From Candidatus Heimdallarchaeota archaeon (lineage in GTDB: Archaea; Asgardarchaeota; Heimdallarchaeia; Heimdallarchaeales; Heimdallarchaeaceae): a DNA stretch of 64,000 bases. Below the pieces are notes generated by a model. The model was not told the DNA's origin and did not search any database. It was given only the letters and a program-made list of their open reading frames with translations. Numbering within the stretch: position 1 is the stretch's first letter; each line of letters starts with the position of its first letter. The stretch covers positions 2,571 through 66,570 of the forward strand of contig DAOVET010000002.1 of NCBI GenBank assembly GCA_030668825.1. The letters run 5' to 3'. Below, in pieces: positions 19,021-60,580 of this stretch. The translations under genes were made by a program, and so were the position numbers.

Positions 19021-20514
19021 TTACTTCTTCTTTCTCCTAAGTAAAACCATTGTAGCCACAAAAATTGATGTAATGAAGACAGGGATCATACCAAAAGCAT
19101 TTGTCGTTTCTGTTTCTGGAATCAAAATCCCAAGTATAGTATTATACTTTGTTTGAGCAAAATTTCTCCATTCTCCATCTTTTATTGCAGAAAAAGTTGC
19201 ATTCAATTGATATTGCGTATTCCAGTCTATAGATTCCTGCAAGGTCATTCCCGGTACTCCGAGATCTTCTATTAGTTCATTGAAGAATGTACTATTAATT
19301 TCACCATCTCTTAATTGTGTTACCATCTCACCCCAAGTATTTCTTAGCAGGGTGTGAAGTTGTTCAATTGTATTGTGGAAATAGTAAATGGTTGTAGCTA
19401 AGTTAGAAGTAGCAAGATCTTCGTCGAAGTCTATACCTACATTATCCAGTGTTTCATTGAATAGTAAGTATAAATCAGGTCTTAATTGTCCATCTGGGGT
19501 GTGAAAAGCATCTTCATTAACTGGTAATCGGTCTATACCTTCAGTTAACCAGATAGCTTGACCTTCTGGAGTATTTACGTATGTTAGAAACGCTGCAGCA
19601 GCATCATAGTCATCAACATTGATACCCATAGCGATAGGATCACCATTGACAATTGATTGACCTTGTGGGATTATGTACTCACAATCAAGATTCTCTCCCA
19701 TGGCTATTATTCCATAAAAGTCGATTGTCATAGCAATTCCCACTTCACCACTAACTACAGCAGCCCTTGTAGCTACTGATCCAGGATACATTCCTGAATT
19801 AGCACCCATTCTTGTCAGAATCGACCATCCTACATCCCAACCAAATGCTTGGAGGATAATTTGGTAAATTCTTGTATTGGATGTGGTTAAAGGTGGATCA
19901 CCCATACTAATAGCTTTAACACTAGGACTGATGTAATAAATTGGACTGGCTAATTCTTCCCAAGTTTTTGGTACTGGAAGAGCATGAGTGGTTAAGAAAT
20001 CATGATTAACAGTAAAACCAAAAGAAGAGATAGCATTTGCTGCCCAAACAAGACTTCCATTTGGTGCAAACGACTTCATACTTGCACCTGCTAATTCAGC
20101 AGGAACACTGTCGTTTATTGCTGTAAATAAAGCAGCATCAGTTACAGGATCAATGTGTTTTAACAAACCCCAATTATCCATAGTGTTGAACAAAGCTGGT
20201 CCACCACCCCATGCAAGATCCACAGATTTCGAAGGATCCTCTAGAAGTTTCTTCCATCCGGCATCTGTTGAAGCTTGTCTGAAATCAAATGAAGTAACAC
20301 CTAATGCAATCGCTTCTGGAGTCGCTAAGAAAGCAGCTTGAAATGCGTTTGTTAGAGTTGTATCATGTCGAGTAACAATGGTTAAGGTAACTGCATTAAG
20401 CTCTGGATTTGATGAGTTAGCAGTATCAACTTCAGCGTTAATCATAAAAACGGCTGAACCCATTGATATCGATGCAATTAAGAAAACTAGAATAGCTATT
20501 CTTTTTATATTCAT
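19021..20514 (-). CDS. ABC transporter extracellular solute-binding protein (family 1-like) with C-terminal TM anchor
   Basis: Signal/TM 'MNIKRIAILVFLIASISMGSAVF'. Periplasmic-binding-protein-like body. C-terminus 'TNAFGMIPVFITSIFVATMVLLRRKKK'. It lies directly upstream of the permease. Poly-T run downstream. Confidence 0.6.
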   Translation of the reverse strand: MNIKRIAILVFLIASISMGSAVFMINAEVDTANSSNPELNAVTLTIVTRHDTTLTNAFQAAFLATPEAIALGVTSFDFRQASTDAGWKKLLEDPSKSVDLAWGGGPALFNTMDNWGLLKHIDPVTDAALFTAINDSVPAELAGASMKSFAPNGSLVWAANAISSFGFTVNHDFLTTHALPVPKTWEELASPIYYISPSVKAISMGDPPLTTSNTRIYQIILQAFGWDVGWSILTRMGANSGMYPGSVATRAAVVSGEVGIAMTIDFYGIIAMGENLDCEYIIPQGQSIVNGDPIAMGINVDDYDAAAAFLTYVNTPEGQAIWLTEGIDRLPVNEDAFHTPDGQLRPDLYLLFNETLDNVGIDFDEDLATSNLATTIYYFHNTIEQLHTLLRNTWGEMVTQLRDGEINSTFFNELIEDLGVPGMTLQESIDWNTQYQLNATFSAIKDGEWRNFAQTKYNTILGILIPETETTNAFGMIPVFITSIFVATMVLLRRKKK

Positions 20515-20706
20515 TTTATAATCAACCTTCTTATTGATATCTAATAATATCAAATAATTATCTAGCATTCAGACTATAAAGTTTTTGCACTATTGATAAA
20601 AATGGTTTTTTAAGAAAAGCAATATGTAATAAATTCTTAACAATAGAAATAGCAATAAATTAACAATTATTACCAAAGAAATATAGCGCCCACAATTTTG
20701 ACATCT

Positions 20707-21180
20707 ATGGGAGTAGATTTTTCTACTTTAACTCCTGCATTTGATGGTGGAGCACAAACTGGAATCCCTTTCTGGGGTTTCGAAGACAATGATGTACCCG
20801 TTATCAAATTAGCTTCCTACAAATATCTTGACGGTCAATTTCAAGAATTAACTGAAGAAACTAAGATTGCAGATGTTTTCAATATTAGTTTATCAACTTT
20901 TGATTGGTGTAACGAATTAGTAGGTGAACTAGAAGTTGAAGGTCTAATTTTTGAATCTATAAATTCAAAATGGTCAAATGTCTGGTTTTCTAATATTGAT
21001 CTAACAGAGCTAAAAAATGGAGAAAAAACTTTTCATTTCACAGTAACTGATCCATTTGGAAATATCGGAACTTATGATATAACAACCAATTTAAAACAAG
21101 CCTCAATATCGACATGGCTCTCAATTACAGTTTTTCTTGTAATTGTAACTTATCTCGTTCTAAAACGAAGAAAAAAATAA
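20707..21180 (+). CDS. small C-terminally anchored protein lacking an N-terminal signal peptide (possible gene remnant)
   Basis: Begins 'MGVDFSTLTPAFDGG' with no hydrophobic N-terminus. Ends 'ISTWLSITVFLVIVTYLVLKRRKK'. Confidence 0.4.
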   Translation: MGVDFSTLTPAFDGGAQTGIPFWGFEDNDVPVIKLASYKYLDGQFQELTEETKIADVFNISLSTFDWCNELVGELEVEGLIFESINSKWSNVWFSNIDLTELKNGEKTFHFTVTDPFGNIGTYDITTNLKQASISTWLSITVFLVIVTYLVLKRRKK

Positions 21181-21200
21181 CTTTCTTTTTTCTTATTTTT

Positions 21201-23089: not shown

Positions 23090-23099
23090 GGTGAAATAA

Positions 23100-24113
23100 A
23101 TGAAAAGAAAATATATTTTCAGTTTAATTCTAATTGTGGGAATGATTACCGGCATGACAACAACAAATGCATATACTACTACACTTGATTTCACTGGTGT
23201 AACAATCGCATTTGATATCTCTCATGGAGGTTATCACACAACAGAAGCAGACTTAGCTCCCATAATAGGTAATTTAACAGCTGCAGGTAACACAGTTATC
23301 TACATTAATGAAACTTGGGGAATACCCGATAATGTAGCCGCTTTATTCCTAACACAATCAGACGACAATTATACAGCTGCTGAACGAGCAGATATTAAAA
23401 CTTGGTTTGAATTAGGAGATAAATTACTCTGGGTAGCTGGAGACTCTGATTTTGGTGGTTACTACAATCCATGGTCAATAAATCAAGTTCTTGGAACCTT
23501 AGGTGCTATAGTCAGAATGGCTGGTGTTTCAATTGAAGATTCAGTATACCACGATGGGTCAGCCTATCGTACTGCTCCAAATCAAATTGGTTATGGAAAT
23601 GCATTATATGATGATTTAGCTGTCGAACTTACAACTGGTATGACTGCTGGTATAATCGCACATGGTCCAACTGCAATTATGGCATGGAATGGATTTGATT
23701 ACAGAGATCTAAGATTAGGAAAATCAGTCTTTCCACTAAAAGTTAATGTGATTATGACTTACAGTGAAAACGCAACTGCTATTGATTCAGATACTAGCGA
23801 GGGCGTTTTAGACATATATGCTGGAACAACTGGAGGACTCTACCCAGCTGTTGTACATGAAAACATGACTGATGTTGGAAGTCACATAATCGCTACAAGT
23901 GAAGCTATCTATACAAACTACAAGTTTATGTATGGACAAAACACCGAAAATGGCGTATACAATAATGGTACTCACTATGGTCAAATGTTAGTTAATAACA
24001 TCCTCAACTACTTCGTAGTTGAACCAGAAGAACCAACCAAAACCAATGCATTTGCTCTAATTCCATTAGCTGCAATTGGTGTAATTTACGCTATTTCCCG
24101 CAGAAAGAAATAA
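23100..24113 (+). CDS. secreted protein with signal peptide and C-terminal TM plus RRKK anchor
   Basis: 'MKRKYIFSLILIVGMITGMTTTNA' signal. C-terminus 'TKTNAFALIPLAAIGVIYAISRRKK'. Followed by a poly-T terminator. Confidence 0.5.
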   Translation: MKRKYIFSLILIVGMITGMTTTNAYTTTLDFTGVTIAFDISHGGYHTTEADLAPIIGNLTAAGNTVIYINETWGIPDNVAALFLTQSDDNYTAAERADIKTWFELGDKLLWVAGDSDFGGYYNPWSINQVLGTLGAIVRMAGVSIEDSVYHDGSAYRTAPNQIGYGNALYDDLAVELTTGMTAGIIAHGPTAIMAWNGFDYRDLRLGKSVFPLKVNVIMTYSENATAIDSDTSEGVLDIYAGTTGGLYPAVVHENMTDVGSHIIATSEAIYTNYKFMYGQNTENGVYNNGTHYGQMLVNNILNYFVVEPEEPTKTNAFALIPLAAIGVIYAISRRKK

Positions 24114-24118
24114 TCCAC

Positions 24119-28197: not shown

Positions 28198-28797
28198 CTA
28201 CTGCTCGCTAAATGCATCTCCTTTATTAAAGCTCTCTACTGCTTTTGCTCTATCAACAGCATCAACCATTCCATCACATCTGGGATGATAAAACTGATCG
28301 CAGTTTCTACAAACTTGTTCATTCTTCCTATTTCTAAATCCAGTAAAATAAGCTCTGCTTGTAAAGTAGAGAAAGAGAGTTATGAGAATGACTGCAAACG
28401 CCCACCAATTCATTGCCTGAGCAAGGGTAACTATAGAAAGAATGATCGATAAACCTGCTGAAATCATAGCAATTCCAAGAAGGAAACGACATATGTCTTT
28501 AATTAAACGAGGAGGTTCAAGAAACGCACTAATGGGGGTAAAAATGAATAAAGACACTGTGGCAACAAAAGCCATCCAGAATGTTACTTTAAGAACAAAA
28601 ACCATTATAGGTGCTAGAATCAAACCAGCAATCATCCCGCCATAGAGATTAATACATCCTCTACATACTTTGTGACCCCTTATTATATACATGTGATCAT
28701 CGAAATTCTTACACAATGGATGATGAGCTAATCTATATGGGGAAAGCATCCACTTTTCTCGTCTAGACATCTTTTCTTTCTGCTTCATCTTTATCAC
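28198..28797 (-). CDS. membrane protein with flanking CxxC pairs (DUF2085-like)
   Basis: 'HPLCKNFDDHMYIIRGHKVCRGC' at the N-terminus, 'CRNCDQFYHPRCDG' at the C-terminus, and 4 TM helices between. The start may be internal (28749), avoiding overlap with the TPR gene. Confidence 0.4.
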   Translation of the reverse strand: MIKMKQKEKMSRREKWMLSPYRLAHHPLCKNFDDHMYIIRGHKVCRGCINLYGGMIAGLILAPIMVFVLKVTFWMAFVATVSLFIFTPISAFLEPPRLIKDICRFLLGIAMISAGLSIILSIVTLAQAMNWWAFAVILITLFLYFTSRAYFTGFRNRKNEQVCRNCDQFYHPRCDGMVDAVDRAKAVESFNKGDAFSEQ

Positions 28798-30772
28798 TTA
28801 AATATATCACATATAATGTATTTATGGCAATACTACTTATCAAATATAGTAGTATTAACAAGTTCTCTTCGCTAATCTTGTCTTGAAATTCTGTTATTTT
28901 AACACTCATTCTTGTAAACATCTGATTAAACTTTTGTTCTAGGAGTTGATTACCAAATGTTACGTTAATGGGATTAAAATGCTTTTTTAATAATTCTATA
29001 AGAATTAATTGCTTTTGTTTAATTATTAACTGAAAATCTAATGGAAGTTTTTCCGTCCAATCAATTTTCTGAAGATATTTTTTTGAGATATATTTGTGTT
29101 TAATACTGAAAAAAATTGAATCTAGCAAGGTAAGCAGGTCTACTAAAGACAGCTCACTTAATTTCTTATTATCCAAAGATAAGACTTTAAGTACCTCTTC
29201 TAAAGGAGGTTCATCTTCATTTTCTGAATTGATTTCTTCTGTATCTTTTTTTATTCTGACACTCATTTGCTTTAATATTTCTTCTTTTTTTTCAGTCGAA
29301 GAAAAATTTAGAATGTTGTGTAATGTCTCTTGTAGAATATACAGAGAACGCTCAATTTCTGAAAACTTCAATAAAACAGTAAATTCATCCTTTATGTTTT
29401 TTAACTTAACATTTTCTAATAAATAGAAAGTTCTAAGAATAAGTGAGTATCTCTGCTTATTCTTTACTTGAACATATCTGAATATGTTCTTCAAAACTTT
29501 AATACATTTACGAAAATCTCCTTGTAAAAAGTATATCTCAAAAAGCATATCCAATATTTCTGCTATAGCAGAATCTTTGTATTTAACTGCTAAATCCCTT
29601 CCTTGTTCTGCAAATACTGTAGCTTGTTCATACTTCCCTAACTTAAGATATATTTGCGCTTTAGAATGGTAAATTGCGATAAGACTCCGCTTGTCTTTAA
29701 TTTCTGCTCCTATTTCTTCAAGCTCATTCAGTATCTCTAATGCTTCATCTAGTTTATTCTGAATAACTGCTACCTGACTCAGCATCTGTTTTAATTTTCC
29801 ATAATCTGGTAACATCTCAACAAATTTCCCTTGTGTCAGACGATGAATACTATCAATTCCCAGCTTAATTACGTTCCTTGCTTTGATAACTTGTTTTTCT
29901 TTTAACAGCGCTTCAGCAAAGATATCTATAAGGGGAATATGAGCTCTGGTAATCTCAACTGCTTCCTTGTTTTCTAAATATTCAAGATTAGTTATCACTT
30001 GATCAAAATTCTTAAGACTATAATACAATCTTGCTTTGGTATTGAGTACGCTGTGGAATCCTTTCTCATGATTAATTTCCTTGAACACTTCTTCAGCTTT
30101 AATCAGAAATTCGTTGGCAAGTTCCTCGTTAAGTTGATTTGCATATATAGAGCCAAGATTTAGAGAAACTGTAGCTTCTCCTAGTATATCTTTAGTTTGT
30201 TTTCTCAAATTTAGACTTTTGAAATAATAATTAATAGCTTCATCATACTCACCAAGATAGAAATGCAACCCCCCCAAACTAGAATATGTGTGTGCTTGAC
30301 CTTCTTCATTCATGTAAATTTGATCTATAGATAATGCCATCTGAAAGAGTTTCTTACTCTCCTCGAAATTTCCCTGTTCCATGTGGAGATTAGCTAAATT
30401 ATGGTATATTGCAGCTCTAGTATCATCGTTGAGTGAAGACTCATGAAGTTCAAGTAATTCGGAATAAATCTCCATAGCTTGTTTTTTTTCACCTATGCGT
30501 CTTAGAATCTTGGCATATTCTATTTTTGCATCAAATACCTCTTTCTTAGGAAGTTGATGTAATTCTAGTATTTCCATCACTTCTTTAATATTCTCAAAAG
30601 CTTGCTTATTTTCACCTAAGAAATAATATGCCTTTGCTAAAACAAAGTAATAGTTTTTTTTATCTATGTTACTCATTTTTTGATTTAATTCTCTATGAGC
30701 TAACTTGATAATACTGGTGTAATCATGATCTTTAAACATTTTTTGAAGTTCTTCAGCTAAATAGTCAACCAT
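28763..30772 (-). CDS. TPR-repeat protein (669 aa)
   Basis: Repeated 34-residue units with 'AxxYYxLGxxxxAxxxYxxAL' patterns throughout. Confidence 0.7.
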   Translation of the reverse strand: MVDYLAEELQKMFKDHDYTSIIKLAHRELNQKMSNIDKKNYYFVLAKAYYFLGENKQAFENIKEVMEILELHQLPKKEVFDAKIEYAKILRRIGEKKQAMEIYSELLELHESSLNDDTRAAIYHNLANLHMEQGNFEESKKLFQMALSIDQIYMNEEGQAHTYSSLGGLHFYLGEYDEAINYYFKSLNLRKQTKDILGEATVSLNLGSIYANQLNEELANEFLIKAEEVFKEINHEKGFHSVLNTKARLYYSLKNFDQVITNLEYLENKEAVEITRAHIPLIDIFAEALLKEKQVIKARNVIKLGIDSIHRLTQGKFVEMLPDYGKLKQMLSQVAVIQNKLDEALEILNELEEIGAEIKDKRSLIAIYHSKAQIYLKLGKYEQATVFAEQGRDLAVKYKDSAIAEILDMLFEIYFLQGDFRKCIKVLKNIFRYVQVKNKQRYSLILRTFYLLENVKLKNIKDEFTVLLKFSEIERSLYILQETLHNILNFSSTEKKEEILKQMSVRIKKDTEEINSENEDEPPLEEVLKVLSLDNKKLSELSLVDLLTLLDSIFFSIKHKYISKKYLQKIDWTEKLPLDFQLIIKQKQLILIELLKKHFNPINVTFGNQLLEQKFNQMFTRMSVKITEFQDKISEENLLILLYLISSIAINTLYVIYLSDKDEAERKDV

Positions 30773-37743: not shown

Positions 37744-39909
37744 ATGGTAGAATTACGAGGTATTGTCTCAGGTTTAGATTGTGCTAATTGCGTTGCTAAA
37801 GTTACTAGGCATTTGCAAAACGCAGTTGGTGTAAATAATGTACAATTAAACCTCGTGTCTACTAAGCTTATCGTAGAATATGATAAGGAACAGATTAGTG
37901 AAAAAGAACTTATAAAGAATATCAAACAATCAGGATATAAGTTTGATAGCACTTACGAGCATAAATCATTCTTTAATATTAGACACAACAAAAACCTTCT
38001 TCTCGCTATTTTTGGACTAGTTTTCCTTATTATTGCTTTAAGCACAAGTCAATTTCTACCTCTTAATTATAACTTGTTTTTTTATGTTCCTACTATAGTA
38101 ATTGGTGGAATTCCTGTTTATCTGAAAGCTTTTGGCTCAATTAGAACCAAAACAATTGACATAGACATTCTGATGGTTCTTGCTATAATTGGGGCAATGA
38201 TAATAGGTGAGTGGGAAGAAGCAGCAGAAATTGTTGTTCTCTTTTCAATAGCGGAATTGTTAGAAGCATTTTCAATGGACAAAGCTAGACAATCAATAAG
38301 AGAGTTAATGGATTTAACACCACCAACAGCAACTAGATTAATTAAAGGAAAAAAACACGAAGAAGTTCCTCTAGGTGATTTAGTTGTTGGTGATAGAGTA
38401 AGTGTTAAACCAGGAGCAAGAATTCCAATAGATGGAAAAATAGACTGGGGAAGAACAAATGTTGACCAGAGTCCAATAACTGGAGAATCTATCCCAGTCA
38501 ATAAAGATGTTGGAGACAAAGTATTTTCAGGGTCTGTCAACATTGATGGTTATATTATTATTCGAGTAACACGGATGCCTGAAGAAAGTACAGTGGCTAG
38601 AATCAGGCAGCTGATAGAAGAAGCAGAGCAACAGAAATCAAAAAGAGAACAATTTATCCAAAGGTTTGCAAAATATTATACACCAATTATGGTGGGAATT
38701 GCATTATCAGTGTTTCTAATTTCTGGGATTTTTTTGAATATCCCAATTGATCCTTCAGTTCTTAAAGAAGGGCTCTATCAGAGTTTAGTAATTCTGGTAA
38801 TCTCATGTCCTTGTGCTTTAGTGCTATCGACACCAATAACTGTAGTGACCGCAATAACTAGAGCTTCAAAAAGAGGTGTTTTAATAAAGGGAGGTAAATA
38901 TCTTGAAGCTATATCTGACTTAGACACCCTAGCATTGGATAAAACTGGGACCTTATCAACTGGAAAACTAAAAGCTTACAAAGTTGAAGCTTTAGAAGGT
39001 TATTCTGAGAAGGAAATTATCGAAATAGCATATGGTTTAGAATATCATTCAGAACATAAAATTGCAGAAGCAATAATCAATCTGGGAAGAGAAAACAATT
39101 CAAGATTGTTTGGATACAAAGATGTTGAAATAATGCCTGGGATGGGAATCAAAGGAACAAGAAAGAAAGTAACTTACTATCTAGGAAATGAATCGCTTGT
39201 TGATAGAATCATAGGTTTAGAATCTTGTGATTTACACTGTGAAGAAACTGAGAGTATTGTTAGTTATGTTTTAGACGATAAAACAATCTTAGCTCATATT
39301 CACATGTCTGATGAGTTGCGAAGTGAAACCAAAGAAGCTGTCAATTCACTAAAGAAACTTGGAGTAAAAGATATTGTAATGCTCACTGGTGATAATGAAG
39401 AAGTAGCATCAAAAATTGCTGAAGAATTAGATATTAATTATGAAGCAGAACTGTTGCCAGAACATAAAATGCAGTTTATCAAAAATCTCAAAGAAAAAAA
39501 TCAAACAGTGGTTATGGTTGGTGATGGAATAAATGATTCACCCGCTTTAGCTCTTTCAGATGTTGGTATTGCAATGGGGGCAGCAGGAACAGCAATTGCC
39601 ATAGAAACAGCTGATGTTGTGCTTTCCTCAGATAATTTGTTCAGTCTACCTTATCTATTCAAACTAAGTAAAGAAACTAAAAGAACTATTCAAATTAATA
39701 TCTACTTATCCTTGTTTATCAAATTCTCATTTTTTGTACTTGTTTTAATTAATGCAACACCAATTGCCCTTGGGACATTTCTAGGAGCGAATTTACTTTG
39801 GCTAGCTGTGCTAATTGGAGATATGGGAGCTTCATTATTGGTTATATTAAATGCAATGAGAGTTGGTAGAAAGAAGTTTTATTCTGGAAAGATGTTGCCA
39901 AAGAAATAA
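37744..39909 (+). CDS. P1B-type heavy-metal-translocating ATPase (CPC type; TM8 Asp suggests the Zn/Cd/Pb subgroup)
   Basis: N-terminal HMA 'GLDCANCVAKV'. 'SCPCAL' in TM6. 'DKTGTLS' phosphorylation site. 'GDGINDSPAL'. 'GDMGASLLVILNAMRV' in TM8. Confidence 0.85.
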   Translation: MVELRGIVSGLDCANCVAKVTRHLQNAVGVNNVQLNLVSTKLIVEYDKEQISEKELIKNIKQSGYKFDSTYEHKSFFNIRHNKNLLLAIFGLVFLIIALSTSQFLPLNYNLFFYVPTIVIGGIPVYLKAFGSIRTKTIDIDILMVLAIIGAMIIGEWEEAAEIVVLFSIAELLEAFSMDKARQSIRELMDLTPPTATRLIKGKKHEEVPLGDLVVGDRVSVKPGARIPIDGKIDWGRTNVDQSPITGESIPVNKDVGDKVFSGSVNIDGYIIIRVTRMPEESTVARIRQLIEEAEQQKSKREQFIQRFAKYYTPIMVGIALSVFLISGIFLNIPIDPSVLKEGLYQSLVILVISCPCALVLSTPITVVTAITRASKRGVLIKGGKYLEAISDLDTLALDKTGTLSTGKLKAYKVEALEGYSEKEIIEIAYGLEYHSEHKIAEAIINLGRENNSRLFGYKDVEIMPGMGIKGTRKKVTYYLGNESLVDRIIGLESCDLHCEETESIVSYVLDDKTILAHIHMSDELRSETKEAVNSLKKLGVKDIVMLTGDNEEVASKIAEELDINYEAELLPEHKMQFIKNLKEKNQTVVMVGDGINDSPALALSDVGIAMGAAGTAIAIETADVVLSSDNLFSLPYLFKLSKETKRTIQINIYLSLFIKFSFFVLVLINATPIALGTFLGANLLWLAVLIGDMGASLLVILNAMRVGRKKFYSGKMLPKK

Positions 39910-39949
39910 TTTAATAAAGATTTTTACTAAAGAAATATTGGTAGAGTTA

Positions 39950-41803
39950 ATGAGTAAACCTGTGAAACCGTTCAACAAAGCTATTGTTTACATATTAATT
40001 GGTATTTTAGTCATTACTTCAATATTCGCTGTAATGATGTTTGGACCACGTCCTGGTCCACAAAGCAAGATGTTTAATTCTACACTTAGGTATTATACAA
40101 AAGGGACAGAAAAATTATTTTACACAGATTATGCTCAATCTATCGTTCAAGATATCAAAGAAGTAGGCATTTTTGTTACCGATTATCAGATGGAGTATTC
40201 AACATTTTTAGATCAGGTTATCGGAGCGAAAGAATATGAAATGGCAATAATTGAGATTGAGGGTCAAAATGCCCCTCATTTTGAATTTTTATTTAAGGAG
40301 GGTGCAAGTTTAAACGTTTTCAATTTTCAAAATGCAATGGATAATGGTACTACGCTTAATATAATCAACAATATAACTCAAGAAATGGATTTCTATGCAA
40401 GAAAAAATCTTTTCTTTACATTACAAGAACATCTGATGGATAATGTAGTTCCAATGGTACCCATTTTTACTCCAGCAAGAACATTTGCTTATTGGGATAA
40501 CTTAGAAGGGTTTACAAGTAAGTGGGGAATATCTGATAGCCTACCATACATGTCCTTTAATGGATTACATAGCAATCAAGAATCAGTTACTGAGCTAAAA
40601 ATAGGTATTGGAGGATGGTTTGATTTATGTCCTCTAACAATGAGGGAAGCTGGGGAGAAATTACTTATATCTCTTATCATGGATAAATTAGTTCATCTGG
40701 ATGAAAAAGGAGCTCCTACAAAATATGGGTTGATAGATAGTTGGGAATATCTTAATCAAACAACTTTATTGCTTCATGTAAGAGACAATGTTCAGTGGCA
40801 ACCTGATGTGGATGGGATTTTTACTAGTGAAGAGTTTTCAGTTTATGATGTTATTTTTACTTTAGATATAATTAGCAGTATACATGCAAACGTAAACTAT
40901 CAACTCTATAAGTGGATAGATTCTTATGAAGTATATAATGGTACAACAGTCGCAGTTCACATTGATTCAGTTCCAGAAACAGTAGAAAGGGAATCTTATG
41001 CTTTTGCCCTCGAAGATTTGTCAGTTTATAGTTACCCTGAATACTATTTGGATGTTGAGAGCACAATTGAAGAAATAGTTGAATCAGCGAGATGGATTAA
41101 GTATAGAGAAAATCCGTTTGGAACAGGAAAATACAAATTCAACGCAACGGAGAGTCATATAGATCTTACTGCTTTCTTAGAAAGATTTGACGGTTGGCAT
41201 GGAATAGGGGTAGATCCTGGTAAGACTACAAACCTAGTTTTTGAAACCATTGAAGCTCAAACTGTTCCTGATAGTTACTCAATGAACTTAGAATTACAAG
41301 AGGGGAGCAAGATAGACATAGCTGATTTTGGGAAGGATCCCGCAATGGAAATAGCAATACCTGATGATAACTTCAGGGTTGATTATAAAGTAGAAAACTC
41401 ATTAATTTTCATAGCATTCAATTTAGAGAATGATGTCTTTGGAGGAACTAATAACTATGTACCAACCAATGAGACAGGGGTGTCAAAAGCCTTAGCAATA
41501 CGTAAAGCTCTATCATCACTAGTCCATAAAACATTTCTGAATAATGCTTTTCATGAAGGAAAGTATAATATAACTGATTCACCAGTTTCTTGTTATTATA
41601 CAGATTATTATTATCAAAGTGTAACGAAGTATCCATACAGTATCTCTGAAGCCATTGAGTTCCTAAATTTGGCTGGATTCAACATATCAACAGAAACAAA
41701 TGGATCAGTAGAAGAATCAAGTTATGGAGTAATCAGTTCTGTTGTGGCTCTTGGAATCTTTACAGCAATTACGATTACATTAAGAAAAAGAAAACAAAGG
41801 TGA
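39950..41803 (+). CDS. secreted/anchored surface protein (618 aa) with N-terminal signal anchor and C-terminal TM plus RKRKQR tail
   Basis: 'MSKPVKPFNKAIVYILIGILVITSIFAVMMFG' and C-terminus 'VISSVVALGIFTAITITLRKRKQR'. Confidence 0.5.
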   Translation: MSKPVKPFNKAIVYILIGILVITSIFAVMMFGPRPGPQSKMFNSTLRYYTKGTEKLFYTDYAQSIVQDIKEVGIFVTDYQMEYSTFLDQVIGAKEYEMAIIEIEGQNAPHFEFLFKEGASLNVFNFQNAMDNGTTLNIINNITQEMDFYARKNLFFTLQEHLMDNVVPMVPIFTPARTFAYWDNLEGFTSKWGISDSLPYMSFNGLHSNQESVTELKIGIGGWFDLCPLTMREAGEKLLISLIMDKLVHLDEKGAPTKYGLIDSWEYLNQTTLLLHVRDNVQWQPDVDGIFTSEEFSVYDVIFTLDIISSIHANVNYQLYKWIDSYEVYNGTTVAVHIDSVPETVERESYAFALEDLSVYSYPEYYLDVESTIEEIVESARWIKYRENPFGTGKYKFNATESHIDLTAFLERFDGWHGIGVDPGKTTNLVFETIEAQTVPDSYSMNLELQEGSKIDIADFGKDPAMEIAIPDDNFRVDYKVENSLIFIAFNLENDVFGGTNNYVPTNETGVSKALAIRKALSSLVHKTFLNNAFHEGKYNITDSPVSCYYTDYYYQSVTKYPYSISEAIEFLNLAGFNISTETNGSVEESSYGVISSVVALGIFTAITITLRKRKQR

Positions 41804-46546: not shown

Positions 46547-47041
46547 AGAATTCTTGTAGACAATCAAGAAATTCTTCATTATACTGAAAATCAACTGGCT
46601 GATTACAGATGTAAAACTGTAGGTTTAATCTATCAGTCTTACAATTTAGCGCAGTTCTTGACTGTCAAAGAAAATATAGAGTTTCCAATGTTATTGGCAA
46701 AAACACCACTAGAAAAAAGAGAAAAACGTATTGAAGAGCTAACAGAATTTCTAGAAATTAGTAGATACATTGAGCAAAAACCTGAATTCTTGAGTGGAGG
46801 GGAACAACAACGAGTTGCGATTGCTATTGCCTTAGCAAATAATCCTCCAATAATATTAGCTGATGAGCCTACAGGTAATATTGATGTAGAAACAGCAGAA
46901 ACAGTTTACACCAATTTATCTCATATGTGCCAAATCTATAACACAACTCTTGTGATAGCCTCACATGATCCAAAAGCCTCAGAATATACAGAAAGAGAGG
47001 TAATTCTAACAGAATTAGAATCCAATAAGATAAGAAGGTGA
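46547..47041 (+). pseudogene. 5'-truncated ABC transporter ATP-binding protein (MacB/LolD-like), lacking Walker A
   Basis: The frame opens after a TGA at 46544-46546 and reads '[47 protein letters not shown]...[32 protein letters not shown]...SHD'. Q-loop, signature, Walker B and H-loop are present. There is no P-loop and no ATG. Confidence 0.55.
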
Positions 47042-47195: not shown

Positions 47196-48611
47196 TTAAA
47201 AATATTTTTCTAGTTTCTTAGTAGAGAGAACCAGTACAATTAAAGAAATTGAAATGGTGCTGTATCTCTTCTGAGATTTAGAATTCAAATCAGAAGTAAA
47301 ACGAAGACTATATCTGTTCAAATTAAAAAAATCTATTTCTGATATTGGAATACGATAATAGTAAATAGAACTTGGTCCCCAAGTAGCAGAAGTTTTTTTA
47401 CTCCTATCAAAACTAGACCAAGCAAAATGGAAATAGTTTTCACTTAGATCGCAGTGAGCGTAAAATTCATTGTATTTTGATGTACTTGTTAATTGAACTT
47501 CCTCAAAACTCTCTCCATCGTATTTACCCAAGAATATGTCCATTTGATCACTATTGTTTAAGAAAGTTCTTCGTGTATATACAAAACGAAAAGTGCCATC
47601 TTCAAGAACGCAAATAGAGTCATCATAAAAAATCATGTTACCATAAAAGCTGACTATTTCTTGAGTAGTAGAATAAGTAGAGTTGAAAACTTTTGTAAGA
47701 AAAAGACGACTGATATTAGTTTCATGGCCACTTTCATAATAAAATACATTGAATGTGTTATCAGAAGGAATTATAGCTATAGAATATTGGGGAGGATTAC
47801 CTATTCCCAATTTATAAAGTTCCCAACCGTTTTCTGGCCAATTAATAGCTAAATAAGGATGCATATTGTTTTCATTTATATAGTTCCCCCATAGCAAAGC
47901 TATAGTAGAATTCACAACTTTGAAATCGCCAGGAGCTACTGAAAAATCATCAACGATTTCGGGTAACACCGTATGCATGAATATACCCTTGTTTTCTGTG
48001 CCATTGTAGATAACAGGTGTTTGAACACCAACGGTACTTCCATTTATTTGAAAAAGCTGATGCGTGATGAATGCAAACACAGCATCTCCAGAACCAGAAA
48101 ATAGCCAGTTTAAAACAGGTTTTCTCACACCTACGCTACAATTGTAGGGCACATTTTCTAGAGCTGGATGTTCCTCCCAGGTATTATTGATTACTGTTAA
48201 AACCTCCCCTAGATCGTTTTCATATCCAGTTGTTGCATAAATATAAATAAAAGGTCTTTTTTGTGGGTCTAATCCAATTCTTATTTGAAAAAAAGTACCT
48301 AAAACCATCGAATTAAATCTTGGAATGAAAGCTATAGTGTCTTCCTTGAGATTTAATCTGGTATAGATCAAGTCTATGTCGTCTCCGATATCAGATGTAG
48401 CATTAGAGAAACAGAAATGGGTTATGTTATCATTTTCTACAACCATGTCTGATAGAATACTTGCATTCCATAAAGCATTGGGATAAACATATTTATCAGT
48501 AATTGGTTTCTTTGGTTGTTCGATAACTAGGTAATATATAGGTAAAGCAATCGCAAGGCTAATACTTATTAAAATCCCTATTGAAATAACAATTCTCAGA
48601 TACTTTTGCAT
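47196..48611 (-). CDS. secreted protein (471 aa) with N-terminal TM/signal and hydrophobic C-terminus
   Basis: 'MQKYLRIVISIGILISISLAIALPIYYLVI'. C-terminus 'ISISLIVLVLSTKKLEKYF'. Many N-x-S/T sequons. Confidence 0.45.
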   Translation of the reverse strand: MQKYLRIVISIGILISISLAIALPIYYLVIEQPKKPITDKYVYPNALWNASILSDMVVENDNITHFCFSNATSDIGDDIDLIYTRLNLKEDTIAFIPRFNSMVLGTFFQIRIGLDPQKRPFIYIYATTGYENDLGEVLTVINNTWEEHPALENVPYNCSVGVRKPVLNWLFSGSGDAVFAFITHQLFQINGSTVGVQTPVIYNGTENKGIFMHTVLPEIVDDFSVAPGDFKVVNSTIALLWGNYINENNMHPYLAINWPENGWELYKLGIGNPPQYSIAIIPSDNTFNVFYYESGHETNISRLFLTKVFNSTYSTTQEIVSFYGNMIFYDDSICVLEDGTFRFVYTRRTFLNNSDQMDIFLGKYDGESFEEVQLTSTSKYNEFYAHCDLSENYFHFAWSSFDRSKKTSATWGPSSIYYYRIPISEIDFFNLNRYSLRFTSDLNSKSQKRYSTISISLIVLVLSTKKLEKYF

Positions 48612-48818: not shown

Positions 48819-50483
48819 CTATATCTTGCTTTTTCTTTTCGAACTAAATTTGAAATAACCAAATACAGCTAGTGGGATTAGTACAACTAAAGAAAGAAAC
48901 GAGTAGTAAATGTTATTATTTCTATAGATTGGAGGTTCAGAAAGAGGATAAAGGTCTTGTGCATTTGCAAATCCATCTATATAATAGCTTCCCACTACAA
49001 CAAAATAGTCAGTCCAGTAATTCCCTTCTTCTGATTCTTCATCGTACCAAATATTATTTACACCATCGTCTTTAGCTTGAGCAGTGTTAAAATATTGATT
49101 ATTTTCTATGAAAGAATTATGATGTATTGAATTATTCCTTGAGTATAAATCCAGAACTACTCCCCATAGAAGGTTTTCACTTAAAAAATTGTAACTAAGT
49201 TCATTTTTGGAAGAGCTTTCTAGAACTATACCTGCAAAATTTGAGTTACACGTATTATTGATGATCGCCATTCCTATGGAACCATAAGTATAGATTCCGA
49301 GATTCCAATTATCAGAGCAAAAATTGTTTTGAATTGTTCCTTTAATACAATAACGTAGGGTTATACCTGTATGAGTATAGGATAGGTTTTGGTTCAATAT
49401 TTGAATATTGGAACAATCTGCAAGAATTAACTGACCGTAAATAGGTTGGGTAATTTTTAGATCATCTAAACCCACAAAATAACCAAATTCTTTGTCATTA
49501 ACCGAATTATTTTGGACAATGTAGGAGTGATAGTCTTCTCTGTTTAGTTCATAGAATTCGAAACCACTTCTATACAGAGCATTGTTAGTTATTTTTGACT
49601 CCTCAGCATCGATTAAGTATATCCCAATTCCATTACCAGAACAAATATTATTGTCAACTGTTACATTCCCCCCATTTACTATGACAATCCCCATACCAGA
49701 GCAATGGTTGTTTGAAACAAAAGAATCATTGGATTCATAAAGCGCTATATTAGTCTGGCTATTATCTGTGCACAAGTTATTTACTACAGTTGATTTGTTG
49801 GATTGAGATAAACTTATGCCCCCATGGTAAGTATTTTCATAACATCTATTATCAGCTACGTACGATAAAGGTGATTCTTCCACAACAATCCCTCCCATAC
49901 TATTTGAATTGCAAGTGTTATTATTAATCAAACACGCTTCACTTAGGTCTACAAATATCCCTAACCAACCATCCTGAATACACCGATTGTTTTCAATTTG
50001 TGATTCAGAAGAGTTCCCAACATGAATACCAACAAAGCTATTATAGTTGCAAGTATTGTTAATTATTTTCGTGCCTGGTGAATGATTGATTCGAATGCCT
50101 GTTGCAGAATTTCCCACACAAATGTTGTCTTCTATTATAGTTGTTTCTTTCCTTACAGAATCTATAACTATACCGCCCCTATAAGCATCTACAAAACAAT
50201 TCTGAATTTTAAAATATTTAGTCGTATTATGGATATAGATTCCTTTATCCTCAGAGGTTGTTATGTTCAAATTTTCAATCCTGAAAGGTTCTTGAGGAGT
50301 CCCAGTACCTAATAATCCATAATCTGTGAAATTTGAATCATTTGTTATTATAATTGGTAATGAGTCTAAGTAAGAAAAAGAATAGGGATAAGTAGTACTT
50401 TCTGAAACAATTATATTCTGAACAGTAATCTCAGTTGAGCTTATTAATATAACTAAAATAAACATTTGATATAATTTATTCAT
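48819..50483 (-). CDS. secreted right-handed parallel beta-helix (PbH1) repeat protein with C-terminal TM plus basic tail
   Basis: Signal 'MNKLYQMFILVILISS'. Repeated 'NNxCxxNxxxGIxxxxS' beta-helix units. C-terminus 'FLSLVVLIPLAVFGYFKFSSKRKSKI'. Confidence 0.6.
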   Translation of the reverse strand: MNKLYQMFILVILISSTEITVQNIIVSESTTYPYSFSYLDSLPIIITNDSNFTDYGLLGTGTPQEPFRIENLNITTSEDKGIYIHNTTKYFKIQNCFVDAYRGGIVIDSVRKETTIIEDNICVGNSATGIRINHSPGTKIINNTCNYNSFVGIHVGNSSESQIENNRCIQDGWLGIFVDLSEACLINNNTCNSNSMGGIVVEESPLSYVADNRCYENTYHGGISLSQSNKSTVVNNLCTDNSQTNIALYESNDSFVSNNHCSGMGIVIVNGGNVTVDNNICSGNGIGIYLIDAEESKITNNALYRSGFEFYELNREDYHSYIVQNNSVNDKEFGYFVGLDDLKITQPIYGQLILADCSNIQILNQNLSYTHTGITLRYCIKGTIQNNFCSDNWNLGIYTYGSIGMAIINNTCNSNFAGIVLESSSKNELSYNFLSENLLWGVVLDLYSRNNSIHHNSFIENNQYFNTAQAKDDGVNNIWYDEESEEGNYWTDYFVVVGSYYIDGFANAQDLYPLSEPPIYRNNNIYYSFLSLVVLIPLAVFGYFKFSSKRKSKI

Positions 50484-55221: not shown

Positions 55222-55230
55222 GTTGAGCAG

Positions 55231-55914: not shown

Positions 55915-55916
55915 TT

Positions 55917-57194: not shown

Positions 57195-57262
57195 CTCTTT
57201 TCCATAAAAACTGAAAATTAGGAGATAAAAAAGATTTTGATGATAATCTTATTTCTCATGTA

Positions 57263-57550: not shown

Positions 57551-57623
57551 TTTTGAGGCGGTGTGTAAATTTTATCCACATGTGTATATATTTTGCACAG
57601 TATATAAACCTTTCGTAAAACGC

Positions 57624-57641
57624 TGTGCAAAGGCTTGCACA
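57624..57641. promoter_or_regulatory. inverted repeat TGTGCAA-AGGC-TTGCACA upstream of the wHTH regulator gene, plus an extra TGCACA half-site at 57594-57599
   Basis: Perfect 7-bp arms read from the sequence. 'TATATAA' TATA-like element between the half-sites (57601-57607). Confidence 0.3.
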
Positions 57642-57667
57642 CACGAAATGAGAAAAAAAATATGGAT

Positions 57668-60580
57668 TTATGTCGTTATTTTTCGGAATCTGAATCTGAT
57701 AACAGGAACCATAGCTAAAGAGACAAACAAAATAGCTATAACCCAATTAGTAATAGATCTAATTGTACTCAATTGATCCCAAAACTGAACATTATTTAAG
57801 ATTTCAAATCTTCCATCTGAGGGAGTATAATCTGTGAATTTTAGCGGAATATATAAAATATTCAATCCATACTCCTCTAGCGTAAAAGTAATTTCATATT
57901 GACTCGATGTTGAATTATAGACTAGTTCAAGATTTTCAAATACTAAATTTGGGTACATTAGAGTTGCATTCAATTTGTTATTTCCACTTACATAGAAACT
58001 TCCATTCTTGAATCTGATTTGAACACCAACAGATACTGGTTTTCGGATGAATGTTTCCTCTGGAGTACTTTTTATTATGTACTCTGGTCTATGAGTATCA
58101 ATAAGCCAATTGAATGTTTCATTCACTAATTGAGAGTTTTTATCATCCAAACCAAAAATATCTTTGAATGAATAATCTAATCCAGCTCTTGAAGGGTTAC
58201 TTTCGTAGGAATCTGGTAACAAACCATGATCTGTAAATGGGTATCCTGAACCAAAAACCATTACTCTTCCGTTGTGATATTCCTTTGCTATTGCAGCATT
58301 AAAAGTATATTTTTCACTGTCTATAACAGTCTCAAATGTCGCTATAACGGTGTTGTTTTCGTTTGGATTATCCGAGAAAAAGACCGGTCTTCCCCAAAAC
58401 ATAAAAGAATCTACATCAAAATTTTCTGTTTCAATAATTTGTGCTTCATAGGGAACATAAGTAATAGGTATTGATTGTCCTACACTCATATTGAACTGTT
58501 CTAGTAATTCATCACATGCATAATAATTGCTTGAAATTAATGGTTCATTATCTATAGATTTAGCATCAATAAATCTAATACTGTCAATCAAAAATAGTAG
58601 GGAACCACCACTAGTAACAAAATCTTGGATATCATCTAACTCCTCTGAAGTAAAATTAAATTCAGGATCTGAGATGACTAGAATATCAATATTTGTAAAA
58701 GAGTAGTTTCCTTGATAATGATTGCGTATACGAAAACCTCTATCTTTCAAAATTCGAGTAAGATAATTGTGTGTCCCCACTGATGAAGATGCATCAAACC
58801 ATCTGTTTTCTGTATCATTTTCATGAGAGTTATCGAATAGAACTGTCCCACCTAAATATCTTGTTTGAATTGAAATACTCATGGTTATAATAATTCCATC
58901 AGTATTCTCAAACAAAATTCCTGCGGTAATAGTTCTTATAGGTGTGTTTAGAGGAATTGAGATGTTAAATGCGAAGTGATTCCAACCTATAGAGACATCT
59001 ATTTGATTTGATAATTCAATGAATTGCGAATCTCCTGTGAGAGTTGTACTAATTTGTCCATCAAAAGATGAGATTAGTTTAATGATAAATTCAGAAGTTT
59101 CCCCCTCTACACATGAGTAAAAATACTCATTCACTGGAGAAATTCGCTTTGGTAATATTGTAAAAAGTCCAAGAGTTTCATAAGAATCTAAGTAATAATA
59201 AGCTGCTAAAGGATTAACCATACCATTTCCTTGGTAAATAATTGGGAAATTCATATCATCTGCGGTTTCTAAAATTGCTGCTTCATATTTATGAACTCCA
59301 AGACCTGGGAAAGCGTCTATTAATAAAGCAAAAACGCCACTAACAATAGGTGCAGCAACAGAAGTTCCTGAAACCCATCTTGAACCACCAGTTGAAGCAT
59401 CACTTCCTTGAATGGCAATACCTGGAGCTAATATGTCTATTCCAACAGAAAAGTTGCGATTCAAACCTTTTGATGTAAATATTGCGAGATTATCCATATA
59501 TTCAGATGCACCAACAGAAATAACATGATCCCAGATTGCAGGAGCACCAATAGAAGCTCCTGAAGGACCATAGTTACCAGCAGAAGCAATTACGGGAATA
59601 TCTAGTTCTGCTGCTTCATAAATTAGTTCTTCAATTGGATCACCCATTTCAGCAAAAGTAACAGATGTTAAACTAGCTGAAATCAAATCAGGATTCTGTT
59701 GGATTGCTTCGTCAAAACCTATTATTAACCATTCATCTTTTCCATATCCAGTTTTATCAAGAACTTTAATGTTGATTAATTGAGCATCAGGTGCAATTCC
59801 ATAATCGTCTGTTAGTTCTATAGTACCATCTTCATTTCTATATTTTCCATTTCCCGCTAAAACTGAAGCAATATGGGTTCCGTGACCTGAAAGATCGTCT
59901 GAGTCTTCAAAAGCTGGAATTAAGTTCAGATCAATTACGATTTTAGGTTCATCATAGTTTCTTAAACTGTTTAAAGCTGGTGCTACAGATGCATTTAAGC
60001 CACTATCCAATAATGCAATACGAACTCCATATCCTGTCACTCCAGCTTCATGTATTGCATCTATTTCTAGAGCTTGACGAAGAACACTAAGATCCATCAA
60101 TCCTGAGATATCCATATCAACATTCTGAGGAATCTGAAAATCATATGTTCCAATTGGATATACATATTTCACTCTTAGGTTATTGAATCCCAATTGTTGT
60201 AAGGTTTCTTCAGTATATATAATTGATACAGCAGGAATTGATTTGAAAGTTCTTTCAATTAATGTACCGCTTTTCATGGTATTTTCAATGAACATATCCC
60301 TTTCATCAAATGAGAAAAATGATATCATTGCTCTTCCGTCAAATTTCATCAAGTCTTTGTAAATTTGGTTCTGTTCCATAGGAAATTTCCATCGTTGATC
60401 CTCGAGGATATTACTAGCTTTTATTATAGAGAAACTAGTCTCATCCGAACTCGTACTTGAATTGAGTACTGTCGAGGGATTCATCTGATAACCCGTTAGA
60501 GATGCATCTGTTTGAAATAACATGGGTAAGGGAAGAATAAGAAATGAAACTAGAAAAATGATGAATGGTTTATTTCTCAT
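57668..60580 (-). CDS. subtilisin-like serine protease (S8 family) with long C-terminal extension and TM plus basic anchor
   Basis: Asp 'GVRIALLDSGLN', His 'SGHGTHIASVLAGNG', Asn 'SAGNYGP', Ser 'GTSVAAPIVSGVFALL'. Signal peptide. C-terminus 'WVIAILFVSLAMVPVIRFRFRKITT'. Confidence 0.85.
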   Translation of the reverse strand: MRNKPFIIFLVSFLILPLPMLFQTDASLTGYQMNPSTVLNSSTSSDETSFSIIKASNILEDQRWKFPMEQNQIYKDLMKFDGRAMISFFSFDERDMFIENTMKSGTLIERTFKSIPAVSIIYTEETLQQLGFNNLRVKYVYPIGTYDFQIPQNVDMDISGLMDLSVLRQALEIDAIHEAGVTGYGVRIALLDSGLNASVAPALNSLRNYDEPKIVIDLNLIPAFEDSDDLSGHGTHIASVLAGNGKYRNEDGTIELTDDYGIAPDAQLINIKVLDKTGYGKDEWLIIGFDEAIQQNPDLISASLTSVTFAEMGDPIEELIYEAAELDIPVIASAGNYGPSGASIGAPAIWDHVISVGASEYMDNLAIFTSKGLNRNFSVGIDILAPGIAIQGSDASTGGSRWVSGTSVAAPIVSGVFALLIDAFPGLGVHKYEAAILETADDMNFPIIYQGNGMVNPLAAYYYLDSYETLGLFTILPKRISPVNEYFYSCVEGETSEFIIKLISSFDGQISTTLTGDSQFIELSNQIDVSIGWNHFAFNISIPLNTPIRTITAGILFENTDGIIITMSISIQTRYLGGTVLFDNSHENDTENRWFDASSSVGTHNYLTRILKDRGFRIRNHYQGNYSFTNIDILVISDPEFNFTSEELDDIQDFVTSGGSLLFLIDSIRFIDAKSIDNEPLISSNYYACDELLEQFNMSVGQSIPITYVPYEAQIIETENFDVDSFMFWGRPVFFSDNPNENNTVIATFETVIDSEKYTFNAAIAKEYHNGRVMVFGSGYPFTDHGLLPDSYESNPSRAGLDYSFKDIFGLDDKNSQLVNETFNWLIDTHRPEYIIKSTPEETFIRKPVSVGVQIRFKNGSFYVSGNNKLNATLMYPNLVFENLELVYNSTSSQYEITFTLEEYGLNILYIPLKFTDYTPSDGRFEILNNVQFWDQLSTIRSITNWVIAILFVSLAMVPVIRFRFRKITT

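Follow-up and report, generated by a model that had tools for sequence, protein, structure and literature searches.

Several archaeal surface proteins are known to be held by a membrane segment at their C-terminus: a C-terminal membrane domain holds SlaB of Sulfolobus (PMC6098224), a C-terminal transmembrane segment is the anchor of Haloferax HVO_0844 (PMC12462473), and the main solute-binding protein of Promethearchaeum syntrophicum, DSAG12_03090, has anchoring helices at both its N- and C-terminus (PMC11284389). Asgard archaea are predicted to make few lipobox lipoproteins (PMC12462473). A second described system is that of PGF-CTERM and ArtA, whose substrates end in a helix with a basic cluster behind it; archaeosortases have been reported from a subset of Euryarchaeota only, and helix anchoring of the Haloferax S-layer glycoprotein had long been assumed when its processing by ArtA was discovered (PMC6098224).

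As a case from the Asgard archaea, we analysed a stretch of 64,000 nucleotides (the window) from a metagenome-assembled, AB_125-like Candidatus Heimdallarchaeota genome of 33% GC. An earlier note had quoted eight C-termini from this window, all of which match the sequence, and had read them as a lineage-specific sorting or anchoring signal on at least eight secreted proteins. We filtered open reading frames for a 17-residue segment with a mean Kyte-Doolittle value of at least 1.6 and no charged residue within it, after which no more than 14 residues remained to the C-terminus, two or more of them Lys/Arg. Seven ORFs, each a real gene, passed this filter and are listed first; a marginal case and a contrasting protein outside the set follow.

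7882-11025, forward strand: surface protein of 1032 aa, proposed earlier as an S-layer candidate, probable start 7927; signal peptide MKNKSIMGSVLLGLTIVLLTLSGSVTQA; helix and tail MVLWSISAIFVTAVATSIRKKLKN (10951-11022).
19021-20568, reverse strand: ABC-transporter solute-binding protein (SBP_bac_8, Pfam E = 4.6e-15), probable start 20514; tail AFGMIPVFITSIFVATMVLLRRKKK (19024-19098), with TN just before it.
20698-21180, forward strand: remnant ORF of 160 aa, with an Ig-like domain and an anchor; tail ISTWLSITVFLVIVTYLVLKRRKK (21106-21177).
23100-24113, forward strand: exported DUF4350-like protein of 337 aa; signal peptide MKRKYIFSLILIVGMITGMTTTNA; tail AFALIPLAAIGVIYAISRRKK (24048-24110), with TN just before it.
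39863-41803 (true start 39950), forward strand: oligopeptide-type solute-binding protein of 617 aa (SBP_bac_5, E = 1.9e-21); N-terminal hydrophobic helix; C-terminal helix and tail YGVISSVVALGIFTAITITLRKRKQR (41723-41800).
48819-50483, reverse strand: exported right-handed beta-helix (NosD-like) protein of 554 aa (Beta_helix, E = 1.3e-46); tail YYSFLSLVVLIPLAVFGYFKFSSKRKSKI (48822-48908).
57668-60580, reverse strand: exported subtilase of 970 aa (Peptidase_S8 and a DUF4350-like domain); tail WVIAILFVSLAMVPVIRFRFRKITT (57671-57745).
47196-48611, reverse strand: marginal case of 471 aa with an N-terminal membrane helix, of unknown family (a Pfam search returned none); C-terminus ISISLIVLVLSTKKLEKYF (47199-47255).
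28763-30772, reverse strand: TPR protein without signal peptide; C-terminal hydrophobic helix followed by an acidic tail, NLLILLYLISSIAINTLYVIYLSDKDEAERKDV (28766-28864).

The uncharged hydrophobic stretch measures 16-20 residues in all seven proteins, and the net charge is +4 or +5 beyond the helix, whereas the 12-13 residues that precede it carry -3 to +1. The protein at 47196-48611 fails the filter: its uncharged hydrophobic stretch has only 12-15 residues, and the tail is mixed in charge (KKLEKYF, net +2). Counting ORFs with a minimum length of 150 aa, 7 of 45 pass the filter in the window; unrelated metagenome contigs totalling 771 kb, taken as controls, yield 18 of 635 (odds ratio 6.3, Fisher p = 7e-4). 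An N-terminal signal peptide (called by eye) or signal anchor is present in six of the seven, the anchored proteins carry extracellular Pfam cargo (SBP_bac_8, SBP_bac_5, Peptidase_S8, beta-helix), and every predicted exported, non-polytopic protein of the window has either a C-terminal or an N-terminal anchor.

The ORF at 20698-21180 has no signal peptide and matches residues 346-505 of a protein of 505 aa from the relative AB_125 (L012:8236-9753; 61% identity, E = 8e-65), and its full-length homologues have a signal peptide and Phosphodiest/Sulfatase domains. It is the truncated C-terminal remnant of a phosphatase/sulfatase-type surface enzyme, and we rejected it as a secreted protein in its encoded form. 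Of the proposed eight or more secreted proteins, six thus stand as clean cases, beside the remnant and the marginal protein, and the original observation is partly confirmed.

The terminal helices are kept in orthologues. The 1032-aa surface protein has 44 homologues of about 1030 aa, the named ones all from Heimdallarchaeota/Heimdallarchaeaceae; signal peptide, helix and basic tail are kept in all full-length homologues, and conservation is 0.61 over the helix and tail against a protein mean of 0.65. The SBP_bac_8 gene adjoins a permease gene (15959-18862), and in its orthologues the helix is kept and TNAF is replaced by TPFAF, SSFAF or DFQL. The 'TNAF(G/A)(M/L)IP' string reported on two proteins is found exactly so on 19021-20568 and 23100-24113; the last 43 columns of the DUF4350-like family align with those of the SBP_bac_8 family in hhalign (probability 83.5%, E = 8.4e-6), and 'TNAF..IP' is part of a C-terminal module of about 45 residues common to these two genes, 2.5 kb apart. 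The oligopeptide-type protein has 48 homologues, the named ones nearly all from Heimdallarchaeaceae; the tails of these homologues are variable and about 5-15 residues long. Its AlphaFold2 model (pLDDT 87) has helices at 10-31 and 594-616 and a globular domain at 43-574, to which the terminal helix is joined by a disordered linker of about 16 residues (582-597), which supports an anchoring role.

Of 120 Asgard homologues of the beta-helix protein, 103 pass the filter for the C-terminal tail, the named ones belonging to Heimdall-, Hod-, Thor-, Hermod- and Promethearchaeota; since the same architecture is found across several Asgard groups, it is generic and the claim of lineage specificity falls. 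Six homologues without the tail stop straight after the DPYPL cap, and a long hydrophobic helix at the N-terminus takes its place: anchoring in this family is either by the C-terminal helix or by a long N-terminal one.

These tails are probably permanent, ordinary type-I (bitopic) stop-transfer anchors that obey the positive-inside rule. An N-terminal signal peptide or signal anchor would thread each protein through the Sec translocon, the last 16-20 hydrophobic residues would act as a stop-transfer sequence and pass laterally from the translocon into the lipid bilayer, and the Lys/Arg cluster would be held on the cytoplasmic face according to von Heijne's positive-inside rule. The functional domain would thereby be tethered outside a cell apparently without wall or periplasm and with few lipobox lipoproteins, and a dedicated sorting enzyme or cleavage would be unnecessary. 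The likeness among the tails is architectural: they resemble one another in hydrophobicity and charge, and several have an interfacial aromatic residue. The basic tail accompanies exported N-terminal domains, and the tail of the TPR protein, the one cytoplasmic protein with a C-terminal helix, is acidic, which fits the prediction of the rule.

SlaB, HVO_0844 and DSAG12_03090 resemble these proteins in having an exported domain that a flexible linker connects to a single C-terminal helix, with a short basic tail in the cytoplasm, and their cargo classes (solute-binding and S-layer-type proteins) match those of the window; DSAG12_03090 has N- and C-terminal helices like the protein at 39950-41803 (PMC11284389). 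They differ in belonging to other families and another lineage, and the window proteins are known from sequence alone. Sec-dependent insertion of the window proteins is likely, and the mature proteins likely keep the helix, which, given the Haloferax S-layer glycoprotein and ArtA precedent, sequence by itself cannot prove.

Alternatively, the tails could be tripartite sorting signals, with a degenerate signature before the helix and basic cluster, at which an archaeosortase-like or unknown Asgard enzyme would cleave and add a lipid, as ArtA does. Like PGF-CTERM proteins, those of the window have a signal peptide, end in a helix and basic cluster and often have a Thr/Ser/Pro/Glu-rich linker before the helix. 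Among 239 cluster representatives of the DUF4350-like family the tails are either plain helix-plus-basic or PGF, and the genuine PGF tails stand at the same position. Some Asgard homologues carry such tails, including one in a Promethearchaeota genome, so that the superphylum may possess archaeosortase-type systems. A loose '[ST]-[PSA]-aromatic-x-hydrophobic' pattern at the helix start, recurring in the SBP5 and DUF4350-like families, also speaks against simple anchors; the P-containing pattern '[STAN]P[FLIYMV]x-hydrophobic' is found there in 15 of 41 SBP5 and 20 of 101 DUF4350-like tails, but in none of 28 tails of the ~1030-aa family, and its frequency among the beta-helix tails is that of chance (7 of 101, 6.4 expected); in this lineage its P is replaced by A, S or N.

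Unlike PGF-CTERM substrates, the window tails have neither PGF nor another invariant motif. A search of the eight tails for a shared motif of width 3-6 gave z = 0.0-0.9, with 15-47 of 100 shuffles equalling it, whereas the same test detects an implanted PGF at z = 11 (in 8/8 tails) or 6.9 (6/8). The HMM excess over segment-shuffled controls is 12-70 bits within families and only about 0-11 bits across them, and the helix sequence is conserved family by family, each having its own. Every tail falls below the cut-offs of the NCBIfam PGF-, Heimdall-, Loki- and PEF-CTERM and LPXTG models: Heimdall-CTERM (NF045529) gives 7.5-13.6 bits (cut-off 24), Loki-CTERM (NF033507) at best 14.1 (19.9) and LPXTG_anchor 14.4 (15.9). 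These weak matches, which could be taken as traces of a signal, cover only model positions ~6-26, the helix and basic part that the Heimdall- and Loki-CTERM models share with the window tails, as they do superphylum and position; the signature end of each is unmatched, and sub-threshold matches are spread over unrelated models (LPXTG, PEF, GG_III, PEP). Heimdall-CTERM itself acts much like a PGF model, giving 30.2 bits to a PGF tail, and we found no paper describing it or Loki-CTERM. The PGF-CTERM model (TIGR04126), which gives the control tail P0249 30.8 bits (cut-off 24.5), has no match to the tails, as the earlier note had rightly held. No exosortase/archaeosortase domain was detected in the ~50 window ORFs or the next 10 kb, and NCBI PGAP names the homologues 'hypothetical protein' or by domain, never CTERM. 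We therefore consider a sorting signal unlikely; the earlier interpretation is partly supported, for anchoring and not for sorting or an archaeosortase-like system.

Less probable still, the anchors could be permanent by default, some being cut within the helix, with its helix-breaking Pro, Gly or Ser, by a rhomboid intramembrane protease that would release the outer domain when required. About 1.1 kb past the window end lies a Rhomboid-family gene of 213 aa that has the catalytic GASGG and His motifs, and Pro or Gly is present in several of the helices (AFGMIPVF, LIPLAAIG, VLIPLAVFG, AMVPVI); rhomboids are, however, near-universal, so that this proximity means little, and no conserved rhomboid recognition motif was found in the tails. 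The tripartite-looking C-termini and the nearby gene also recall GlyGly-CTERM/rhombosortase and LPXTG/sortase systems, but the gene scores 32.3 bits against a rhombosortase cut-off of 84 and no tail has a GG or LPXTG motif.

A compositional accident of an AT-rich genome, in which ORF ends rich in Lys, Ile and Phe would come about easily, or of spurious ORFs is refuted by conservation of the tails in orthologues, down to 30-45% identity: 33% GC does favour Lys, Ile, Phe and Asn codons and 9 of 225 ORFs of low-GC control contigs pass the filter, but the enrichment persists against these (p = 0.008), all seven ORFs have Pfam domains and/or conserved orthologues, and none of the 30-odd spurious window ORFs passes.

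Read as type-I anchors, the helix and its basic end look like the ordinary means by which a wall-less archaeon attaches its surface proteins, rather than a new sorting signal.

Several exported proteins of the window end in a single hydrophobic helix followed by a short basic tail, and the best-supported reading of this arrangement, which we regard as probable, is permanent type-I stop-transfer anchoring. Using a filter that asks for 17 uncharged residues with a mean hydropathy of at least 1.6, followed by no more than 14 residues that include at least two Lys/Arg, we retained 7 of the 81 window ORFs of at least 80 aa, with zero spurious ORFs among them.

Filter-positive ORFs of the window (strand where recorded)
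7882-11025, + strand: member of a family of about 1030 aa, candidate S-layer protein
19021-20568: SBP_bac_8 solute-binding protein
20698-21180, + strand: 160-aa ORF
23100-24113: DUF4350-like protein, 337 aa
39863-41803: SBP_bac_5 solute-binding protein, true start at 39950
48819-50483: beta-helix protein
57668-60580: subtilase

When ORFs of at least 150 aa are considered, 7 of 45 in the window are filter-positive, against 18 of 635 in 771 kb of unrelated metagenome contigs (odds ratio 6.3, Fisher p = 7e-4; p = 0.008 against the low-GC control contigs alone). The uncharged hydrophobic stretch is single in all seven proteins, lies near the C-terminus and measures 16-20 residues, and the net charge is -3 to +1 before the helix and +4 or +5 after it, a positive-inside bias. 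The earlier note had described such anchors on at least eight secreted proteins, adding 47196-48611 to these seven; all eight C-termini read as quoted there, but the count of secreted proteins has to be lowered, since 47196-48611 is marginal (a hydrophobic stretch of just 12-15 residues and a mixed tail of +2) and 20698-21180 has no signal peptide. A eukaryote-type di-lysine retrieval tail (KKXX or KXKXX, that is Lys at -3 plus Lys at -4 or -5 from the C-terminus) was rejected on inspection, with a fit to one of the eight tails (...LRKRKQR, as KXKXX).

The 160 residues of 20698-21180 align with residues 346-505 of a 505-aa protein of the relative genome AB_125 (61% identity, E = 8e-65), which is a full-length counterpart with a signal peptide and a Phosphodiest/Sulfatase domain. 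In relatives this exported enzyme of the alkaline-phosphatase superfamily has 505-520 aa and is encoded at the loci L012:8236-9753 and L015:8228-9790. Judged from these alignments, 20698-21180 is a remnant, the C-terminal third of an enzyme whose export signal and catalytic domain are gone: about 1 kb encoding both is deleted here and in relatives at least 94% identical, and an Ig-like domain and the anchor are left.

By eye (basic start, hydrophobic core, small-x-small cleavage site), we recognised an N-terminal signal peptide or signal anchor in six proteins, for example ...SGSVTQA, ...FMINA, ...TTTNA and ...FQTDA, and these regions are kept in orthologues. Four of the six carry recognised extracellular domains, namely SBP_bac_8, SBP_bac_5, Peptidase_S8 with a DUF4350-like domain, and a NosD-like beta-helix; the fifth exported protein is the DUF4350-like 23100-24113 and the sixth is 7882-11025, whose family has a constant length, a conserved signal peptide and named homologues that all belong to Heimdallarchaeota/Heimdallarchaeaceae. 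The AlphaFold2 model of 39950-41803 (pLDDT 87) places a helix at 10-31 and a confidently modelled globular domain at 43-574, which a disordered linker (582-597) joins to the helix at the C-terminal end (594-616); this agrees with the published description of the main solute-binding protein in Promethearchaeum syntrophicum (PMC11284389). All exported, non-polytopic proteins that we could recognise in the window have a membrane helix, either N-terminal or C-terminal. Column conservation of the helix and tail in the 1030-aa family is 0.61 against a protein mean of 0.65, thus not above the remainder; just outside the membrane, residues ~971-1010 of 7882-11025 form a strikingly conserved stretch, SSAGAD(V/A)F(T/A)GG..TRRxGS(Y/F)D (0.76-0.81).

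A Get3-type tail-anchored topology is ruled out for the six proteins by their signal peptides. The TPR protein 28763-30772 (- strand, 669 aa), which is cytoplasmic and has no signal peptide, ends in a 22-residue hydrophobic helix followed by an acidic tail, SDKDEAERKDV, with a net charge of -2 and a polarity opposite to that of the exported set, and may be a candidate for this tail-anchored topology. Basic tails accompany proteins whose N-terminal domains are exported, in keeping with the positive-inside rule.

A hydrophobic helix and a basic cluster at the extreme C-terminus, both present in the window tails, are also features of archaeosortase substrates, and the earlier note had proposed a lineage-specific, possibly archaeosortase-like sorting signal. 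Substrates of sortases, exosortases and archaeosortases are defined by a common signal (PMC6098224). Searching the eight tails for one motif occurrence per sequence against 100 shuffles, we found none better than the shuffles at widths 3-6 (z = 0.0-0.9, equalled by 15-47 of the 100). A PGF motif implanted as a control was detected at z = 11 when present in all eight tails and at z = 6.9 in six of eight, and the test therefore has power. HMMs built from the tails of single families scored their own family 12-70 bits over segment-shuffled controls and other families only about 0-11 bits over them, and orthologue comparison shows the helices to be family-specific: the 1030-aa family retains WS[IL]SAIFVTA, the 337-aa family IPLAxIGVIYAI and the solute-binding protein IPVFITSIFVAT.

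Known C-terminal sorting models gave a similar picture. PGF_CTERM matched none of the eight tails at E up to 10, which bears out the remark in the earlier note that the signal is not PGF-CTERM, and no signature before the helix (PGF, PEF, VPXXXP, PIP or others) common to unrelated proteins, nor any Gly-Gly signature, was found in these tails. Loki-CTERM (NF033507) and Heimdall-CTERM (NF045529) are Asgard-specific NCBIfam models, with which the window tails align solely over the helix-plus-basic part: Heimdall-CTERM gave 7.5-13.6 bits against a cut-off of 24, over model positions 8-26 only, and Loki-CTERM matched 19021-20568 alone (14.1 bits against 19.9, positions 6-26). For a homologue that bears PGF, PGF_CTERM gave 30.8 bits and Heimdall-CTERM 30.2, above its threshold, so that the latter is a PGF-like domain; the window tails are not members of it. 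The LPXTG model scored best on 20698-21180 (14.4 bits, below the cut-off of 15.9), a tail that contains no LPXTG motif. Among 74 diverse Asgard tails the best matches reached E ~1e-3 (0.0012 for Heimdall-CTERM; 0.0034 for PEF-CTERM, which matched two tails only), the weak ones being spread over LPXTG, PEF-CTERM, GG_III, PEP-CTERM and others, as expected of a generic resemblance. Our literature searches found no papers on models named 'Loki-CTERM' or 'Heimdall-CTERM', and incidental mentions only of archaeosortase or exosortase in Asgard, Loki or Heimdall. With the motif at shuffle level (z no higher than 0.9) and the TIGR/NCBIfam CTERM scores below threshold, we consider it unlikely that the tails are a true sorting signal, and the proposal is not sustained.

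The sequence TNAF..IP, present in the solute-binding protein 19021-20568 and the 337-aa protein, is kept solely in close relatives, those of 81% identity or more; in distant orthologues TNAF is replaced by TPFAF, SSFAF, DFQL, SAWF or LFSL, and the one residue that stays fixed is the Pro opening the helix. Profile-profile comparison of SBP_bac_8 with the 337-aa family could align the last 43 columns (probability 83.5%, E = 8.4e-6), a region that takes in the final helix of the outer domain. A metagenome scan with the TNAF-tail alignment matched 42 stretches, zero of which were confirmed by tblastn, and a DNA-pattern scan for TNAF[GAS..][LMI..]IP gave at least 120 loci; among the matches listed, a single one proved genuine, locus L031, which is orthologous to the solute-binding protein 19021-20568, the others were out-of-frame chance occurrences, and no third protein family carried the sequence. 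We read TNAF..IP as a putative C-terminal module common to two genes 2.5 kb apart and not as a proteome-wide signal.

A looser pattern at the start of the helix (small, P/S/A, aromatic/aliphatic, any, hydrophobic) is seen in NAFGM, SSYGV and GSYDM in the window and, among relatives, in SPFDM, TPFAF and APFNF; its enrichment is limited to two families. A universal 'SP-hydrophobic-x-hydrophobic' motif, confined to two families, was likewise ruled out. The loose pattern is most simply a helix cap with an interfacial aromatic residue. It occupies exactly the place of PGF in PGF-tailed homologues, and that an Asgard enzyme still to be discovered recognises it, as a degenerate element, when processing C-termini seems to us very improbable; on that reading, cleavage followed by re-anchoring or shedding, instead of helix anchoring, would be the fate of much of the surface proteome of Heimdall.

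Exosortase, archaeosortase and sortase domains are absent from the ~50 window ORFs and from the 10 kb past the window. About 1.1 kb past the window end, locus L138 encodes at 12493-13134 (- strand; window-equivalent ~65087-65728) an intramembrane protease of the Rhomboid family; it has 213 aa, carries the GASGG and His motifs and would in principle be able to cut single-pass anchors. That a rhomboid sheds some members is nevertheless a slim prospect, as the best NCBIfam match of this protein, rhombosortase (TIGR03902), reaches 32.3 bits against a cut-off of 84 and the tails are without GlyGly.

Homologue families bear on the anchor as a unit. Of 120 Asgard homologues in the beta-helix family, 103 are filter-positive, and six filter-negative ones end directly after a DPYPL cap and have a long N-terminal hydrophobic helix in place of the tail. 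Tails of the DUF4350-like family (239 cluster representatives) are of two kinds, plain helix-plus-basic and canonical PGF; the PGF kind makes up 11 of the 101 unique tails, one of these 11 being from a Promethearchaeota genome, and the anchor is therefore an exchangeable module. The ~280-aa DUF4350-like extracellular domain of these homologues of 23100-24113 (P0213-P0362), which fall into 239 clusters at 50% identity, is present in one to four copies, and the proteins that contain it reach ~1900 aa.

The window (33% GC) contains archaeal housekeeping genes for fibrillarin, Nop56/58, ribosomal protein S8e, SRP19, Gar1, ELP3, CGI-121 and PAC2. Identical copies of the 515-aa solute-binding protein 19021-20568 occur on metagenome scaffolds as long as 120 kb and in two genome assemblies, GCA_022096915.1 and GCA_021399335.1. 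The GTDB species representatives with its nearest relatives all bear the title Candidatus Heimdallarchaeota, AB_125 (MEHH01; 81% identity) among them, and NCBI-annotated homologues of other window proteins are labelled Heimdallarchaeaceae. Adjoining the gene of this solute-binding protein, 15959-18862 (- strand) encodes a 967-aa ABC-transporter permease (BPD_transp_1) with LVIVD repeats in its N-terminal region; that a permease is fused to a beta-propeller-like domain is unusual. The 127-aa ORF 46658-47041 (+ strand) matches the ABC_tran ATPase domain in its C-terminal half only, at profile positions 75-136 of 137, and is probably a truncated gene. At 11115-15929 (+ strand), a 996-aa SMC_N/AAA_15 ATPase precedes three small ORFs that overlap tightly; these encode 256, 201 and 150 aa, the 150-aa product is Cys-rich, and none has a clear Pfam family. 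This block, kept beside surface-protein genes in relatives, could be a chromosome-maintenance or defence module.

Under permanent type-I stop-transfer anchoring, we infer that the helix is kept in the mature protein; on sequence alone, the Haloferax S-layer precedent (PMC6098224) still leaves room for cleavage. As it stands, the anchoring finding is ordinary. The window documents that a C-terminal stop-transfer helix tethers essentially all the proteins that this 64-kb stretch of a Heimdallarchaeaceae genome exports, among them the candidate S-layer protein, the protease, the beta-helix protein and both solute-binding proteins, and this fits the few lipobox lipoproteins of Asgard archaea (PMC12462473), such anchoring being what would serve as the default surface-protein attachment in an archaeon with few lipoproteins. 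For annotation, such tails should not be labelled sorting domains. The finding would weigh more only if the helices turned out to be removed, which would bring to light a new enzyme for anchoring in the archaea most closely related to eukaryotes.
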